Source: Candidatus Kaiserbacteria bacterium RIFCSPLOWO2_12_FULL_50_10 | GTDB lineage: Bacteria > Patescibacteriota > Minisyncoccia > Phycocordibacterales > UBA918 | Length of the DNA: 58,583 nt | Reading direction: 5' to 3' | Assembly: GCA_001783515.1 (NCBI GenBank) | Contig: MFMN01000015.1 | Coordinates: 1 to 58,583 of the forward strand | Shown: one piece after another, positions 2,597 to 52,037 of the stretch | Layout of the letters: the number at the start of each line of letters is the position of its first letter | Numbering within the stretch: the first letter of the stretch is position 1 | Program-made: the position numbers and the translations under genes | The notes under the pieces: model-generated | Database searches by the model: none | What the model was told of the DNA's origin: nothing | What the model saw: only the letters and a program-made list of their open reading frames with translations

Positions 2597-2670
2597 CCCG
2601 CCCGCTCTTTTCCGCTCAAAAGCCCGCACTGCGCGGGCTTTTTCTGTAGAGCAAGAAGAGTTACATCCAT

Positions 2671-2740
2671 GTGGATTTAACTACTTCTCGCACAAAAACA
2701 ATACACGTAACTTTTGTCATCCTGACGGGATCCAGGAGTC
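2671..2740. repeat. Repeat family A, half element
   Basis: GGATTTAACTAC...AAAACAATACACGTAACTTTTGTCATCCTGACGGGATCCAGG. Confidence 0.85.
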
Positions 2741-15741: not shown

Positions 15742-15805
15742 CTCCCCGACCAATATAAAGAAAGAGCAGTCAGAAGACTGCTCTTTCTTTATATTGGTCG
15801 GGGAG
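15742..15805. repeat. Perfect 30-bp inverted repeat including the tRNA-Pro 3' end
   Basis: CTCCCCGACCAATATAAAGAAAGAGCAGTC-AGAA-reverse complement. Confidence 0.9.
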
Positions 15806-15868
15806 CAGGGAATCGAACCCTGGCCACTCGGTCCCAAACCGAGTACACTACCATTATGCTACACCCCG
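15795..15868 (-). tRNA. tRNA-Pro(TGG)
   Basis: CGGGGTGTAGCATAATGG...TT TGG GA...GGTTCGATTCCCTGCTCCCCGACCA. Confidence 0.95.
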
Positions 15869-15893
15869 ATGGTGAAGTCTTATCTTACACGTG

Positions 15894-15965
15894 TGCGCCC
15901 ACCAGGACTCGAACCCAGAACGCTTGATCCGAAGTCAAGAATGATATCCATTTCACTATGAGCGC
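15894..15965 (-). tRNA. tRNA-Arg(TCG)
   Basis: GCGCTCATAGTGAAATGGAT...CT TCG GA...GGTTCGAGTCCTGGTGGGCGCA. Confidence 0.93.
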
Positions 15966-16022
15966 GTGCCTCGTATCATACGCAAAAACATAAAAAACGC
16001 AACTGTGTTGCGTTCCCTTATG

Positions 16023-18163: not shown

Positions 18164-18299
18164 GACTCTGGATCCCTCCTGGATGACAAAAGTTACGTAT
18201 ATTGTTTTAGATAGACAATTAGTTAAAACGCAGATTTAACTAATTAGTAATCAAAAGCATTACGTTTTACTTTTGTCAGGAAGGATGGGATCCAGGAGT
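18164..18299. repeat. Repeat family A, full hairpin element
   Basis: CTGGATCCCTCCTGGATGACAAAAGT...AATTAGTTAAA/TTTAACTAATT...ACTTTTGTCA..GGGATCCAGG. Confidence 0.88.
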
Positions 18300-20672: not shown

Positions 20673-20809
20673 GACTCCTGGATCCCTCCTGGATGACAAA
20701 AGTTGCGTGTATTGTTTTAGAGAGACACATGGTTAAAGCGAACGCGGATTTAACCATTGAGTAGTCAAGACAATATTACGTAACTTTTGTCATCCAGGAG
20801 GGATCCAAG
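20673..20809. repeat. Repeat family A, full hairpin element
   Basis: TGGATCCCTCCTGGATGACAAAAGTT...ATGGTTAAA/TTTAACCAT...AACTTTTGTCATCCAGGAGGGATCCA. Confidence 0.92.
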
Positions 20810-20822
20810 CCAATACGAATGG

Positions 20823-24731: not shown

Positions 24732-24894
24732 GTTATCCTCGGGATGTAGAAAGTAAACGGAGCAGGGCGGAGTATTACTTCCACATAACCGGGGATCCAT
24801 GGATACTATACAATGTTCTCAAGCCATGGATCCCCGGTTGTCTTGAAAATATATTCGGCAAAGCCTCATTATTTTCATAGACCCCGAGGATGAC
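24732..24894. repeat. Repeat family B element (paired GTCATCCTCGG...CCGGGGATCC units)
   Basis: Two inverted stem-loop units; homologous to 45116-45277 in opposite orientation. Confidence 0.85.
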
Positions 24895-24979
24895 AGGAAC
24901 TGGGATATTGTGCATGTAACGCATGAATTGAGGTATTTTAGTTATGCCTGGTAGCTTCCTTGTGTGGTATACTGCTCAC

Positions 24980-33685: not shown

Positions 33686-33700
33686 ATATTTCTTTTAAAA

Positions 33701-33840
33701 GTCTGGATTCCTCCTGAATGACAAAAGTAGCGAGTGGTGTTTTTTAGAAATAAGTAGTTAATTCGACGTCGATTTAACTACTTATACTTAGTAATTTAAA
33801 GCAATACCTGTTACTTTTGTCATCCTGGCGGGATCCAGGC
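33701..33840. repeat. Repeat family A, full hairpin element
   Basis: CTGGATTCCTCCTGAATGACAAAAGTA...TAAGTAGTTAA/TTAACTACTTA...TACTTTTGTCATCCTGGCGGGATCCAGG. Confidence 0.9.
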
Positions 33841-33896
33841 GCTAGAAATTAGACTATAAACAAAACAACACCTCCATGAATGGAGGTGTTGTTTTT

Positions 33897-37324: not shown

Positions 37325-37338
37325 GAAAAACTCCAGCA

Positions 37339-37398
37339 TTAACTCCCTGTCTCTTTAAAACAATACACATTACTTTTGTCATCCTGGAGGGATCCAGG
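37339..37398. repeat. Repeat family A, half element
   Basis: TTAAC...AAAACAATACACATTACTTTTGTCATCCTGGAGGGATCCAGG. Confidence 0.85.
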
Positions 37399-37448
37399 CA
37401 ATACAACAAAATACCCAATGTTTAATAACATTGGGTATTTCATACATT

Positions 37449-38606: not shown

Positions 38607-38882
38607 ATGCTCTCAGAGTTACATGCAGTTATTTCAGGAAAAGTACAAGGTGTCGGCTATCGTGATTTCGTGCGCGAAAGCGCCGAGTCGCTAAGGTTGT
38701 ATGGGTGGGTGAAAAATAAAGAAGACGATACCGTTGAACTACTTGCGCAAGGGTATCCCGAAAAACTCCGCGAACTCGCCGAACTTCTCCAAGAAGGCTC
38801 GGTGCTTGCAAAAGTAACAGGCGTTGCGACAGAGTTTCGCACACCGCGCGTGCTCTATGAAGACTTTTCAGTAAAAGCTTAA
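38607..38882 (+). CDS. acyP: Acylphosphatase
   Basis: SGKVQGVGYR, GWVKN..DTVE. Confidence 0.93.
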   Translation: MLSELHAVISGKVQGVGYRDFVRESAESLRLYGWVKNKEDDTVELLAQGYPEKLRELAELLQEGSVLAKVTGVATEFRTPRVLYEDFSVKA

Positions 38883-38893
38883 AGCGCGCCCGC

Positions 38894-38954
38894 TTTAACC
38901 ATTTGTCGCTTTAAAGCAATACCTGTTACTTTTGTCATTCAGGATGAATCCAGG
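38894..38954. repeat. Repeat family A, half element
   Basis: TTTAACCAT...TTTAAAGCAATACCTGTTACTTTTGTCATTCAGGATGAATCCAGG. Confidence 0.85.
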
Positions 38955-38971
38955 CTAAAGAACACCAAACC

Positions 38972-41570: not shown

Positions 41571-42236
41571 ATGCGCAAGCATTTCCTCGCCATCTCCCTC
41601 GCCATGTTCGCCGCCTCTGCCTTCGCCGCCCCCGGTGTCCACGTCGACGTTGACGTCACCACAGCCGACACGGTTATCCAGGGTGTCGGCGCCACTGCGA
41701 TGTCGACCGCCCACAGCGGCGACTTCAACGCGGTTGCGTCCGGCACCACGGGCAACGGCATTTCGAGCATCACGCTCGACCTGCCGCAAACCTTCAACGA
41801 CGACGTCGATGTCTCGGTCTACACCAACGGTCTGGTCCTCCAGGGCGTCGGTGCGCTGGCCATGAGCTGGTCTGGCGACGCGACGGCAACCGCCACGGCG
41901 CTGAACGCCGTGTCGACCATTGCCGGCTCCATGGGTGGCGGCGCCGACTCGATCGATGTGAACATCGCATCGGAGGCCCCGGTCATCCAGGGCGTCGGCG
42001 CCAGCGCGATCGTCATGAGCAACAACAGCGGCAACGATGCTGCGGTTGCCTCGGGCACCGCGGCGAACAGCCTCTCGTCCATCGACGTCTCGCAGGTCGG
42101 CTATGCTGACCATGTGGGCGTGCAGGTGGGCACGGGCTTCGTCCAGCAGGGCGTCGGCGCCTTCGCGATCTCGCAAGGCCCGGCCACCGCGACCGCCACG
42201 GCGCTGAATGCCGTCTCCGCCATCAACATCAACTGA
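41571..42236 (+). CDS. Secreted repeat protein, HfaD/functional-amyloid-like
   Basis: Signal peptide plus four ~50-aa repeats with QGVGA and A-x-N-x-(I/V/L)S motifs. Confidence 0.65.
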   Translation: MRKHFLAISLAMFAASAFAAPGVHVDVDVTTADTVIQGVGATAMSTAHSGDFNAVASGTTGNGISSITLDLPQTFNDDVDVSVYTNGLVLQGVGALAMSWSGDATATATALNAVSTIAGSMGGGADSIDVNIASEAPVIQGVGASAIVMSNNSGNDAAVASGTAANSLSSIDVSQVGYADHVGVQVGTGFVQQGVGAFAISQGPATATATALNAVSAININ

Positions 42237-45115: not shown

Positions 45116-45277
45116 GTCATCCTCGGGGCTTATGAAAGCACTGAGCGATAGCGACCATGCTTTCAAAGAGCCCGGGGATCCAAGGCTGTACTGGATACAT
45201 TTTAAGCCATAGATCCCCGGATATATGAAAGTAATACTTCGCTCTGCTTCGTTTACTTTCTATATTCCGAGGATGAC
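45116..45277. repeat. Repeat family B element
   Basis: GTCATCCTCGGGG...CCCGGGGATCC...GATCCCCGG...CCGAGGATGAC. Confidence 0.85.
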
Positions 45278-49814: not shown

Positions 49815-50378
49815 TTACAATCCAAGGCGAGTACGGAGCGCTGCGATACCGCGTCCCTCGCGTGAGGAAATCATGCAGTATTCTTGGTGATGGAATGCTT
49901 GTTTGAATGCACGCTCTGCCTTGATGGTTTCTGATTGGTTGAGCTTGTCCATTTTGTTGTGGACAATAATGAGGGGGAGGTTTTCTTCAGTGGCAACCTC
50001 GAGGAGTTCGCGGTCGAATTTTGTCATGCCGACACTGCCGTCGATAATAAGAACGAGTTGCTGAAGGTGCGGACGCACTTCAGGAGAGGTGAGATACCAG
50101 AGAATGTAGCCACGGATTTTATTCGCCGTTTTTACGGAAGTCTGTGCGTAGCCAAAACCGGGAAGGTCGACAATATATTTTTCAGCATCAACCAAGAAGA
50201 AGTTGATTTCTTGCGTGCGTCCAGGCGTTGCGGAAACCTTTGCTGCCTTTTCATTCAGAAGCGCGTTAATGGTCGAGCTTTTCCCCGCGTTACTACGCCC
50301 CACAAAAGCAATATGTGGAATTTCATCCTCAAGAATTTCATTTGACCCCGTGATGCCTTTTATAAACTGGACTTTCAT
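49815..50378 (-). CDS. engB: Ribosome biogenesis GTPase YihA/EngB
   Basis: GRSNAGKSS, TPGRTQ, DLPGFG, NKMD. Confidence 0.95.
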   Translation of the reverse strand: MKVQFIKGITGSNEILEDEIPHIAFVGRSNAGKSSTINALLNEKAAKVSATPGRTQEINFFLVDAEKYIVDLPGFGYAQTSVKTANKIRGYILWYLTSPEVRPHLQQLVLIIDGSVGMTKFDRELLEVATEENLPLIIVHNKMDKLNQSETIKAERAFKQAFHHQEYCMISSREGRGIAALRTRLGL

Positions 50379-50420
50379 GCTGCAACCATATCACAAAAGC
50401 AACATATGTCACGCTGAACC

Positions 50421-50487
50421 GTGGATTTAACTACTGAGTAATCAAGTACACACAATTTCCCTTTTGTCATTCAGGAGGAATCCAGAG
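50421..50487. repeat. Repeat family A, half element (left flank of GIY-YIG gene)
   Basis: GGATTTAACTACTGAGTAATC...TTTCCCTTTTGTCATTCAGGAGGAATCCAGAG. Confidence 0.9.
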
Positions 50488-50535
50488 CTAAAACAAAATA
50501 CTTAGTCTTTTAAGAAAAAGGAATATACTGCAAGA

Positions 50536-50838
50536 ATGGCATGGAAGAAATACAACTTCTGGGTATATATGATGGCAAGCGGTCGGAACGGTACTATTTA
50601 TGTTGGTGTTACCAACAGTCTCTCACGAAGAGTGCTCGAACACAAACTAAAAGAGAAGAAGGGGTTTACTGAAAAATATGATGTTGCTAATCTCGTGTAT
50701 TCTGAGCACCATACGTATATTATCAATGCAATAGACCGGGAGAAGGAGATAAAAGATCTTTCACGAGCTAAAAAGATAGCGCTCATAGAGGTAGAGAATA
50801 TTTTTTGGAAAGACCAATCAATTGACGAAGGACTCTAG
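50536..50838 (+). CDS. Stand-alone GIY-YIG nuclease (Ssn-like)
   Basis: WVYMMASGRNGTIYVGVTNSLSRRVLEHK, GFTEKY, AIDREKEIK, KIALIE.EN..WKD. Confidence 0.9.
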   Translation: MAWKKYNFWVYMMASGRNGTIYVGVTNSLSRRVLEHKLKEKKGFTEKYDVANLVYSEHHTYIINAIDREKEIKDLSRAKKIALIEVENIFWKDQSIDEGL

Positions 50839-50966
50839 ATTCCTCCTGAATGACAAAAGGGAAAGATAATGCCTTGGATTACTGAGTAGTTAAATCCATA
50901 CCGATTTAACTATGTGTCTCTTTAAAACAGTACCCGTCACGTTTGTCATCCTGACGGGATCCAGGC
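50831..50966. repeat. Repeat family A, full hairpin element (right flank; contains the nuclease stop codon)
   Basis: CTCTAGATTCCTCCTGAATGACAAAAGGG...TAGTTAAATC/GATTTAACTA...TTTGTCATCCTGACGGGATCCAGG. Confidence 0.9.
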
Positions 50967-50967
50967 G

Positions 50968-51978
50968 TCAAAGCACGTATTGTCCATGCTCAAAAATCAC
51001 CACGCCGTCGGCGATGACGCGATCGATGACGGGAAAGACGTCGATATGGTATCGTGCTTTGTATGCTTTAATCCCTGGCTTTTTGTAGATACTATGCTTT
51101 TCACCGATTGAAAAATGCATGCCGAGATTGCGTTCAAAGGCGGTGATGTCGTTCAAGAAGCGTTCGCGAGTAATTGCTCTATTTAATCCAAAGCCAAGCT
51201 CGCGAATAATTGGGCGCTCTTCAAGGCGAACCTTTTCAATAATATCCTTGAACGCTTGTGGTGCATTCTCACCAAATCCAGCAATTTGTCCGTGAGCAAT
51301 ATCGACACGAAACGGCTCGTGTTTTTCTATCTCAAAATTCGTATCGGCAAAAATATCGATGTAGAATGAGCCGTTTATAAGCTCAAGACTTCTTGCCTCG
51401 GTAAACACTTCACCAATAGGGAAAGCACCACCAACGTTTTCCATACCGGTGTAGTCGCCAATGTTGAGGCTTGCTGGTTCGAGTCCTCCACTCACGGAGA
51501 GTGTTGCATTACACGATTCATATCGAAGCTCCTCTGCGCTATCAAGAATATGTTTGAGTCCCTGCCCTGTCTCGCGATACCACGTTTTGTCGTACGCAAG
51601 CGCATCAATATACGTGCCCCATGTCGCTTCAGTATTTCGACCAAGTCGCGCGTGTTCAATCACCTTAATTTTCTTCGCAAAAAGATGGAGCCTAATACGA
51701 AAATCATTGAGTCGAAAGTTCGTCGACTGCACCATGACTACCAAGTCTTGAGGAGAAAGCGTTTCGAACACCGCAAGAATCTCTTCCTTTGATGAGGTGT
51801 CGAAATCAATAGTGGTCGCAGAGGGAAGTGCTGCCTTATACGCATCCGCTACAATCTGCGTGAGTCCCCACTGCGCATCATAAATAATCACCGCTTTGTG
51901 CGAGGCGTCATGCTGCAATGCGCTTGTCAAAATATCTGATACATTTCGCACCGCCCGCTCAGTAAGAGTAAGACTCAT
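50968..51978 (-). CDS. M29/leucyl aminopeptidase-like protein
   Basis: FPIGEVFT, RELGFGLN, ER..GMHFSIG, HIDV. Confidence 0.6.
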   Translation of the reverse strand: MSLTLTERAVRNVSDILTSALQHDASHKAVIIYDAQWGLTQIVADAYKAALPSATTIDFDTSSKEEILAVFETLSPQDLVVMVQSTNFRLNDFRIRLHLFAKKIKVIEHARLGRNTEATWGTYIDALAYDKTWYRETGQGLKHILDSAEELRYESCNATLSVSGGLEPASLNIGDYTGMENVGGAFPIGEVFTEARSLELINGSFYIDIFADTNFEIEKHEPFRVDIAHGQIAGFGENAPQAFKDIIEKVRLEERPIIRELGFGLNRAITRERFLNDITAFERNLGMHFSIGEKHSIYKKPGIKAYKARYHIDVFPVIDRVIADGVVIFEHGQYVL

Positions 51979-52037
51979 ACCTGCACAGTACAAGAAGTAC
52001 GGTGAGAACGCAAACAAAATACGACCAGGGGTCGTAT

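Follow-up and report, generated by a model that had tools for sequence, protein, structure and literature searches.

The window, a 58,583-nt stretch of DNA, is contig C15 of genome G000 (819 kb in 28 contigs, 95% complete, ∼88% coding by a rough ORF call); coordinates without a contig label are window positions. G001 denotes the sister species, the sole congener compared. A small nuclease gene lies between engB and a conserved protein gene, enclosed by inverted copies of a repeat that we term family A:

49815–50378, minus strand: engB (YihA/YsxC GTPase), left neighbour; TIGR03598, 179 bits against a cut-off of 124
50422–50487, plus strand: left arm, a family A unit, found as an inverted repeat; nhmmer unit 50420–50489, E 3.8e-15
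50465–50485, plus strand: SRM-like core of the left arm, TGTCATTCAGGAGGAATCCAG, found as a core match
50536–50838, plus strand: ssn-type gene for a 100-aa single-domain GIY-YIG nuclease
50833–50898, minus strand: right arm, an inverted family A unit, found as an inverted repeat and by nhmmer; core at 50835–50855
50887–50970, plus strand: third family A unit, which makes a standard '-+' palindromic pair with the right arm
50968–52017, minus strand: right neighbour, a conserved Patescibacteria protein of 336–349 aa; no Pfam or NCBIfam model match

A preliminary description had reported inverted arms of ∼65 bp, and they are real: 66 nt each, 83% complementary and 345 nt apart. The arm strings that it quoted occur in the window solely at these two places, with 0 matches in 100 shuffles. 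The stop codon does fall inside the repeat, the TAG at 50836–50838 being provided by the terminal CTAG of the right arm. The third unit had been overlooked; it abuts the right arm, giving the layout unit(+) - gene - unit(-) unit(+), and its CCAG end stops 3 nt before the stop codon of the neighbouring ORF 50968–52017. The engB assignment stood, but the profiles gave no support for calling the other neighbour a peptidase; its homologues are mostly named 'hypothetical' and in a few cases 'aminopeptidase', and the closest named one, at 79% identity, belongs to a Candidatus Kaiserbacteria bacterium, which marks the host as a member of Patescibacteria/CPR. Rfam had no match in 50300–51100, and a promoter/terminator scan at the locus called neither a plus-strand promoter for the ssn-type gene nor a terminator.

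The encoded protein is a stand-alone GIY-YIG nuclease, as had been proposed: Pfam PF01541 covers residues 8–80 of its 100 aa (E 7.4e-15), with no second Pfam domain beside it. The reference for comparison is SsnA of Neisseria meningitidis, 94 aa long, which consists of a single GIY-YIG domain and has been assigned to cd10448 (Chenal et al., Nat Commun 2025, PMC11893778). The target of SsnA is the NTS (CGTCATTCCCGCGMAVGCGGGAATCYRG); cleavage is confined to ssDNA and falls a few nt upstream of that motif, with dsDNA left uncut. It was lost in mutants Y6A, Y17A and E64A, and binding depended on both the sequence and the structure of the hairpin (PMC11893778). The same paper reports the NTS-ssnA-NTS arrangement as frequent, publishes a degenerate SRM search pattern, and in its Discussion presents Ssn enzymes as the sole reported nucleases with site-specific ssDNA cutting.

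Kinship with this family, which the preliminary description had proposed, was borne out by identity, catalytic residues, profile search and tree. Compared by tblastn with Neisseria-genus genes, the protein showed 44–47% identity at 8 of 10 loci and 38–40% at the other 2 (E 1e-15 to 1e-25), and 6 of the 10 loci carry exact NTS matches. One Neisseria-genus homologue is a 94-aa ORF with Y6, Y17 and E64 and with an NTS 2 nt past its stop, and in size, residues and NTS it fits the description of SsnA in PMC11893778; Y11, Y22 and E69 of the 100-aa protein align with these three residues. A3, a profile built from homologues of the 100-aa protein, matched 24 places (E 1e-34 to 1e-41) in 21 of 61 genomes of the genus of N. 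lactamica NS19. The single-protein query had found no match in the genomes of N. lactamica and N. mucosa to which NTS loci had led; their small GIY-YIG gene belongs to the UPF0213 type, with no NTS close by. The genus-wide profile search then recovered ssnA genes in the Neisseria genus. Among 120 NTS-bearing loci from many phyla, two encode a homologue at E ≤1e-5, one with an exact NTS within 50 nt.

A quick IQ-TREE phylogeny of 47 rows placed the query inside the clade of NTS-flanked Neisseria-genus genes. A single branch with 100% SH-aLRT unites it with 2 Ssn-type paralogues from the same genome, 8 Neisseria-genus genes and 26 other homologues; outside that branch fall the fourth small GIY-YIG gene of G000 (on contig C9) and 8 genes of related CPR genomes. 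These comparisons show family membership and conservation of the catalytic residues. Profile scores are bimodal, with the three G000 genes at 137–153 bits and nothing above 68 bits in 39 relatives outside the genus; a broken G001 copy scores 98.5 bits. Because of this gap, the scores suggest that the ssn genes were acquired by transfer. The nearest database relatives (53–59% identity) belong to Alphaproteobacteria, Acidobacteriota and other groups rather than to the CPR relatives.

A free-standing homing endonuclease of the I-TevI type, cutting dsDNA with its GIY-YIG domain, would be another source of such a gene, and NCBIfam TIGR01453 (group I intron endonuclease) did give a weak match (E 8.6e-4). 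That match amounts to 19.4 bits against a cut-off of 56 and spans residues 10–43 alone, the 100-aa protein has no DNA-binding extension, PHROGs and PADLOC returned no match, and the position is within the Ssn clade; we regard this explanation as barely credible.

The repeat itself shows motif kinship with the NTS. The family A core reads TGTCAT-CCnGnnGG-ATCCAG, with a stem ATCC/GGAT of 4–5 bp: it has the non-palindromic flanks of the NTS, GTCAT and ATCCAG (ATCYRG in the NTS), and the palindrome alone is shorter. The motif gives no support to the new specificity that the preliminary description had proposed. Across 83 units the stem covaries from ATCC/GGAT to ATTC/GAAT, with C-G at the varying pair in 57, T-A in 18, T-G in 1 and no pairing in 7, all counted as copies rather than as independent events. 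Flanks of this kind recur around homologues elsewhere. When the 80 closest homologue loci were examined, 48 proved to have flanks that form an inverted repeat with each other; ∼25 of the repeats printed for these loci show GTCAT and/or ATC(C/T)(A/G)G (by eye, unscripted), and many read (T/C)GTCAT - palindrome - ATC(C/T)(A/G)G. The published SRM pattern itself was present within 350 nt at 11 of the 80 and on both sides at 5; four of these five loci have a (+) match nearest on the upstream side and a (-) match nearest downstream, the arrangement of the window locus.

Within G000 the published SRM pattern has just 2 matches, none in a unit of family A or of the second family, B (below), compared with 2–10 in each of 20 shuffles; it misses both because the A stem is too short and the B loop too long. 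On its own, the family A core does not form a stable hairpin as ssDNA (-1.3 kcal/mol, z 0.49). Folding is good for a complete '-+' pair (-18.6 kcal/mol, z -3.06), in which a single long hairpin can pair the two cores; this would turn the cores into dsDNA, a form that the Neisseria enzyme leaves uncut.

The proposed layout of one gene plus dispersed repeats was confirmed: the arms belong to family A, for which an iterated nhmmer profile over G000 found 88 units in 51 elements. These comprise 34 '-+' pairs (∼130–140 nt), 15 solo units, one '+-' pair and one element broken by an assembly gap. Apart from the three units at the locus, the window holds:

2664–2739, plus strand: family A solo unit, found by nhmmer
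18164–18299, no strand: family A '-+' pair, absent from the orthologous 18-nt G001 spacer
20674–20810, no strand: family A '-+' pair, found by nhmmer
33699–33842, no strand: family A '-+' pair, common to G001 (C17:49775–49908)
37336–37399, plus strand: family A solo unit, found by nhmmer
38881–38956, plus strand: family A solo unit, absent from the orthologous 9-nt G001 spacer

The '-+' pairs are near-palindromes centred on the junction of TAGTTAAATCCAC and GTGGATTTAACTA, with their CCAG ends outward. Conservation along the unit peaks in GGATTTAAC and most of all in the final ∼25 nt, CTTTTGTCATCCnGnnGGATCCAG, and information content drops right after CCAG. The arms had been called unusually long, but a 66-nt arm is simply one family A unit, strongly conserved in its last ∼25 nt alone (TTTTGTCATCCnGnnGGATCCAG). 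They had also been described as each other's nearest copies; inside the window they are, but genome-wide each arm ranks only third of 85 copies for the other. Arm-to-arm identity is 0.809, whereas copy C16:7423 matches the two arms at 0.824 and 0.838, and copy C7:28599 at 0.809 and 0.824.

Several individual units deserve mention. The sole '+-' arrangement (C13:24387–24555) has a cassette-like end topology with ∼17 nt between its units, and could be a gene-less counterpart of the cassette or a pair of chance neighbours. Units C7:28577–28648 and C11:37588–37656 both end inside the core and continue with an identical 12 nt, GGAGGTGAATTG, resembling a ribosome-binding site. Past CCAG, many family A units have a weak extra motif (GCGCTAGAGCA or AGTCAAAGCA; e.g. 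50965–50975), whose CTA, TCA or TTA is sometimes the reverse-complement stop of a gene running towards the unit; in 5 cases the stop is exactly at +3. The idea that family A units generally hug stop codons was dropped, since a converging ORF stop lies within -6 to +24 nt of 25 of 74 units.

The window gene has close company in its genome. At C23:20301–20594 lies a paralogue with 83% identity and the same layout, unit(+) - gene - unit(-) unit(+). The two genes differ at 15, 6 and 49 sites in codon positions 1, 2 and 3; since synonymous sites are saturated for a Jukes-Cantor dS, we used pN and pS. The pN/pS of 0.14 indicates that both copies are under purifying selection, and the pS of 0.77 that the duplication is old, with both copies kept. 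A third Ssn-clade gene (C23:16990–17271), with 51% identity, takes a different position in the clade, closer in the tree to the Neisseria genes, and directly downstream of it are two '+-' pairs of family B (C23:17307–17663). The fourth small GIY-YIG gene of G000 (C9:22333–22578) is of the UPF0213/YhbQ type and has no flanking family A units.

Family B units, of ∼72 nt, consist of TGTCATCCTCGGG, a long imperfect hairpin and CCCGGGGATCCAGG (-17 kcal/mol, z -4.3); the ∼60-nt hairpin is bounded by TGTCATCC and GGATCCAGG, and the units form convergent '+-' pairs. Between families A and B the flanks are identical, as is the base of the stem. G000 holds 56 B units in 28 elements; the two families together number about 144 units, ∼1.3% of the genome. 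In the window we found:

24732–24895, no strand: family B '+-' pair of long-hairpin SRM-like units
45116–45277, no strand: family B '+-' pair

We consider it probable that the ORF at 50536–50838 encodes an Ssn-family GIY-YIG nuclease and that its arms are copies of the genome's own Ssn-related repeat. The repeats might instead be independent elements of a REP-, NIME- or MITE-like kind, serving as mRNA 3'-end or terminator structures or being selfish DNA moved by host recombination, with the nuclease gene merely among them. They are indeed mostly intergenic in a genome that is 88% coding, where overlaps of >30 nt with a rough ORF are limited to 5 of the 51 elements of family A and 2 of the 28 of family B; convergent gene contexts are enriched (17 of 51 A elements, against 141 of 745 background intergenic gaps); the A pairs and the B units fold well; and units persist in G001, where no intact ssn gene was found (below). 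Against this, hairpins flanked by GTCAT and ATCCAG bracket homologues in many phyla, and both of the 83% paralogues and the third ssn gene each adjoin repeats of this kind. A role at 3' ends also fits poorly with the lack of any terminator-like call at the locus and with the converging stop at just 25 of 74 units. We judge this explanation very unlikely.

The distribution of genes and repeats was compared across 41 genomes: G000, its congener G001, 23 members of their family and 16 further genomes from their order. Family A pattern matches numbered 69 in G000, 28 in G001 and 0 in the other 39; family B matches numbered 34, 19 and 0; and Ssn-clade genes were found solely in G000 and G001. The co-occurrence of gene and repeats, which had been put forward as a check, is observed, with both repeat families and the Ssn-clade genes confined to one genus of the 41 genomes, although a single genus counts as one evolutionary event. 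In G001 we found no intact Ssn-clade gene, yet 28 A and 19 B pattern matches remain, so the repeats persist without the enzyme. Its single Ssn-clade copy is a pseudogene syntenic with the third G000 gene, frameshifted and missing the GIY-YIG motif region:

L007 (G001:C23:22485–25706), about 1440–1740: G001 ssn pseudogene

Counting against the Ssn/SRM reading are the weak A stem, the mismatch to the published pattern, repeats that outlast the gene and co-occurrence in a single genus.

Unit turnover between the two species was followed over ∼53 kb of synteny and three G001 loci. Common sites are window 33699, the engB site, and G001 L018 (G000 C25:8887); the pair at G001 L024 is partly common, being a solo unit in G000 C27. 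Units present only in G000 include the 18164 pair and the 38881 solo unit, both with clean boundaries, and those at 2664, 20674 and 37336, whose boundaries are unclear. Both family B pairs of the window are likewise missing from the syntenic G001 region. Present only in G001 are the L020 pair, in a diverged spacer where boundaries are unreadable, and the C17:39800 solo unit. Alignment of the two species thus indicates directly that units have been gained or lost between them, and without target duplications. Among 24 pairs, direct duplications of k = 2 matched 4 times (∼1.5 expected) and those of k ≥3 once, at k = 4; the two clean empty sites (18164 and 38881) showed none.

Elsewhere in the window, the intervals 15742–15805 and 15785–16002 drew attention for an inverted repeat, perfect over 30 nt and with a loop of 4 nt. 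The adjoining stretches of ∼90–110 nt are 93–96% identical to G001 but inverted relative to their flanks; they may be RNA genes. At 41673–42223, copies of 29–41 nt are spaced ∼141–162 nt apart (repeat families D4 and D7).

At the engB site, G001 lacks the gene, as might be expected of an empty site, but the site is not cleanly empty: the right-hand pair is kept. Its inner unit is without its last bases, and a 33-nt stub that by eye resembles the start of the left arm abuts it. The gene-less G001 site looks like the product of an internal deletion, with polarity unproven. The G001 site downstream of ftsK was considered as an empty site for the second cassette and rejected, because unrelated DNA lies there.

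These comparisons bear on the description of the locus as the master element of its repeat family. In that picture, unit(+) - gene - unit(-) would be an autonomous mobile element whose nuclease spreads the cassette or the units, by homing-like copy-in or by a transposition-like route without target duplication; it would be compatible with the Ssn reading. It could account for two cassettes on different contigs having the same three-unit layout, for units gained or lost at conserved spacers (18164 and 38881, and the G001-only units too), and for there being more units in G000, with three intact genes, than in G001, with none found intact. No alternative agent was found either: the Y1/HUH transposase PF01797, of a kind that could move hairpin repeats, had 0 matches in G000 (95% complete), and control genomes were positive in 6 of 14 cases. 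A resemblance of the ssn cassette to insertion sequences is raised in the Discussion of PMC11893778, with comparisons to RAYT/REP-BIME and IS200/IS605.

The master-element claim fared poorly nonetheless. The arms are not each other's closest copies, no target-site duplication accompanies the units, and no clean empty site exists at engB, where G001 retains a truncated right arm and the apparent left-arm stub. End topology differs as well: gene-less pairs have their CCAG ends outward, whereas the cassette has GTCAT outward. The cassettes appear old, given the pS of 0.77 and an arm identity near the family median, and G001 has gained units of its own without an intact gene. A metagenome scan found no independent close relative, the sole match at ≥83% identity (L249) being the same DNA as G000 C23. 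Finally, the GIY-YIG fold is not known to have strand-transfer activity. A mobile master element is, on this evidence, unlikely.

We return to the Ssn reading and its consequences. By analogy with the characterised enzymes of Neisseria, N. elongata, N. wadsworthii and Wolbachia, the protein would bind GTCAT - short palindrome - ATCCAG solely in ssDNA and would nick a few bases 5' of the motif, on ssDNA supplied by uptake, replication or repair. The uptake genes ComEC and DprA are present in G000, which makes ssDNA uptake plausible. With ∼144 sites, three ssn genes and ComEC/DprA, cutting of repeat-bearing ssDNA would be a likely outcome; it could influence how incoming or exposed DNA recombines, and perhaps also repeat turnover. 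Cleavage at the A and B repeats and the biological role we infer from these enzymes only.

A further step would make Ssn nucleases the engine that multiplies palindromic elements with SRM ends, a GIY-YIG counterpart of RAYT/REP that acts without target duplication, and would make a minimal Ssn site of the 21-nt family A core, with its two flanks and 4-bp stem. We think this quite unlikely. The species pair is nevertheless a natural experiment for it, with three intact ssn genes of two lineages and ∼144 units on one side, and on the other none found intact and fewer units; the link between enzyme and repeat turnover becomes testable by comparing species with and without intact genes.

The pairing of Ssn with repeats, including the insertion-sequence-like layout, is already known (PMC11893778). 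Full-text searches of literature from 2024 on turned up no description of an Ssn system in Patescibacteria, with the qualification that the supplementary tables of PMC11893778 may list such genomes. This locus adds an Ssn member from an ultra-small Patescibacteria genome. It also brings SRM variants that escape the published pattern, a single genome with both two lineages and two repeat families, and decayed genes in a sister species. Because the published pattern misses these partner repeats, surveys probably undercount such systems. The short family A core and the long-hairpin sites, with their identical flanks, could help to define Ssn recognition, and are relevant to ssDNA tools.

Of known systems, SsnA and the NTS come closest. 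Shared with them are a single-domain GIY-YIG protein of ∼94–100 aa with the same Tyr/Tyr/Glu spacing, an oriented hairpin repeat on both sides of the gene with many intergenic copies, the GTCAT and ATC(C/T)(A/G)G flanks of that repeat, and a symbiont-type host with DNA-uptake genes. The palindrome differs, at 4–5 bp (ATCC/GGAT or ATTC/GAAT), and fails the published SRM pattern, and the family A core stands at the outer ends of palindromic composites of ∼130–140 nt. GTCAT ends face outward here, whereas at one Neisseria-genus locus they face the gene. A second repeat family with a ∼60-nt hairpin and a second ssn lineage in the same genome also set this case apart.

Most relatives have one UPF0213/YhbQ protein (PDB 1zg2), which G000 encodes on C9. 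It resembles the window protein in size and fold family, but a long branch with 100% support separates the two, the match to 1zg2, the sole one in a PDB sequence search, has an E of 0.0048, and family A flanks are missing there. The dRS3/NIME elements of Neisseria are intergenic blocks bounded by inverted short palindromic repeats. Family A elements are likewise intergenic blocks between such repeats, but with other internal sequence, in another host phylum and with the opposite end topology (dRS3 is described in PMC11893778). With RAYT/REP-BIME and IS200/IS605 the locus has in common a small gene between inverted hairpin repeats, many gene-less copies and no target-site duplication. It departs from them in having a GIY-YIG nuclease rather than an HUH Y1 transposase, in a genome from which PF01797 is absent, and in carrying its two flanking motifs on opposite strands. 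From a classical MITE or DDE insertion sequence it is distinguished by having no direct target-site duplication.
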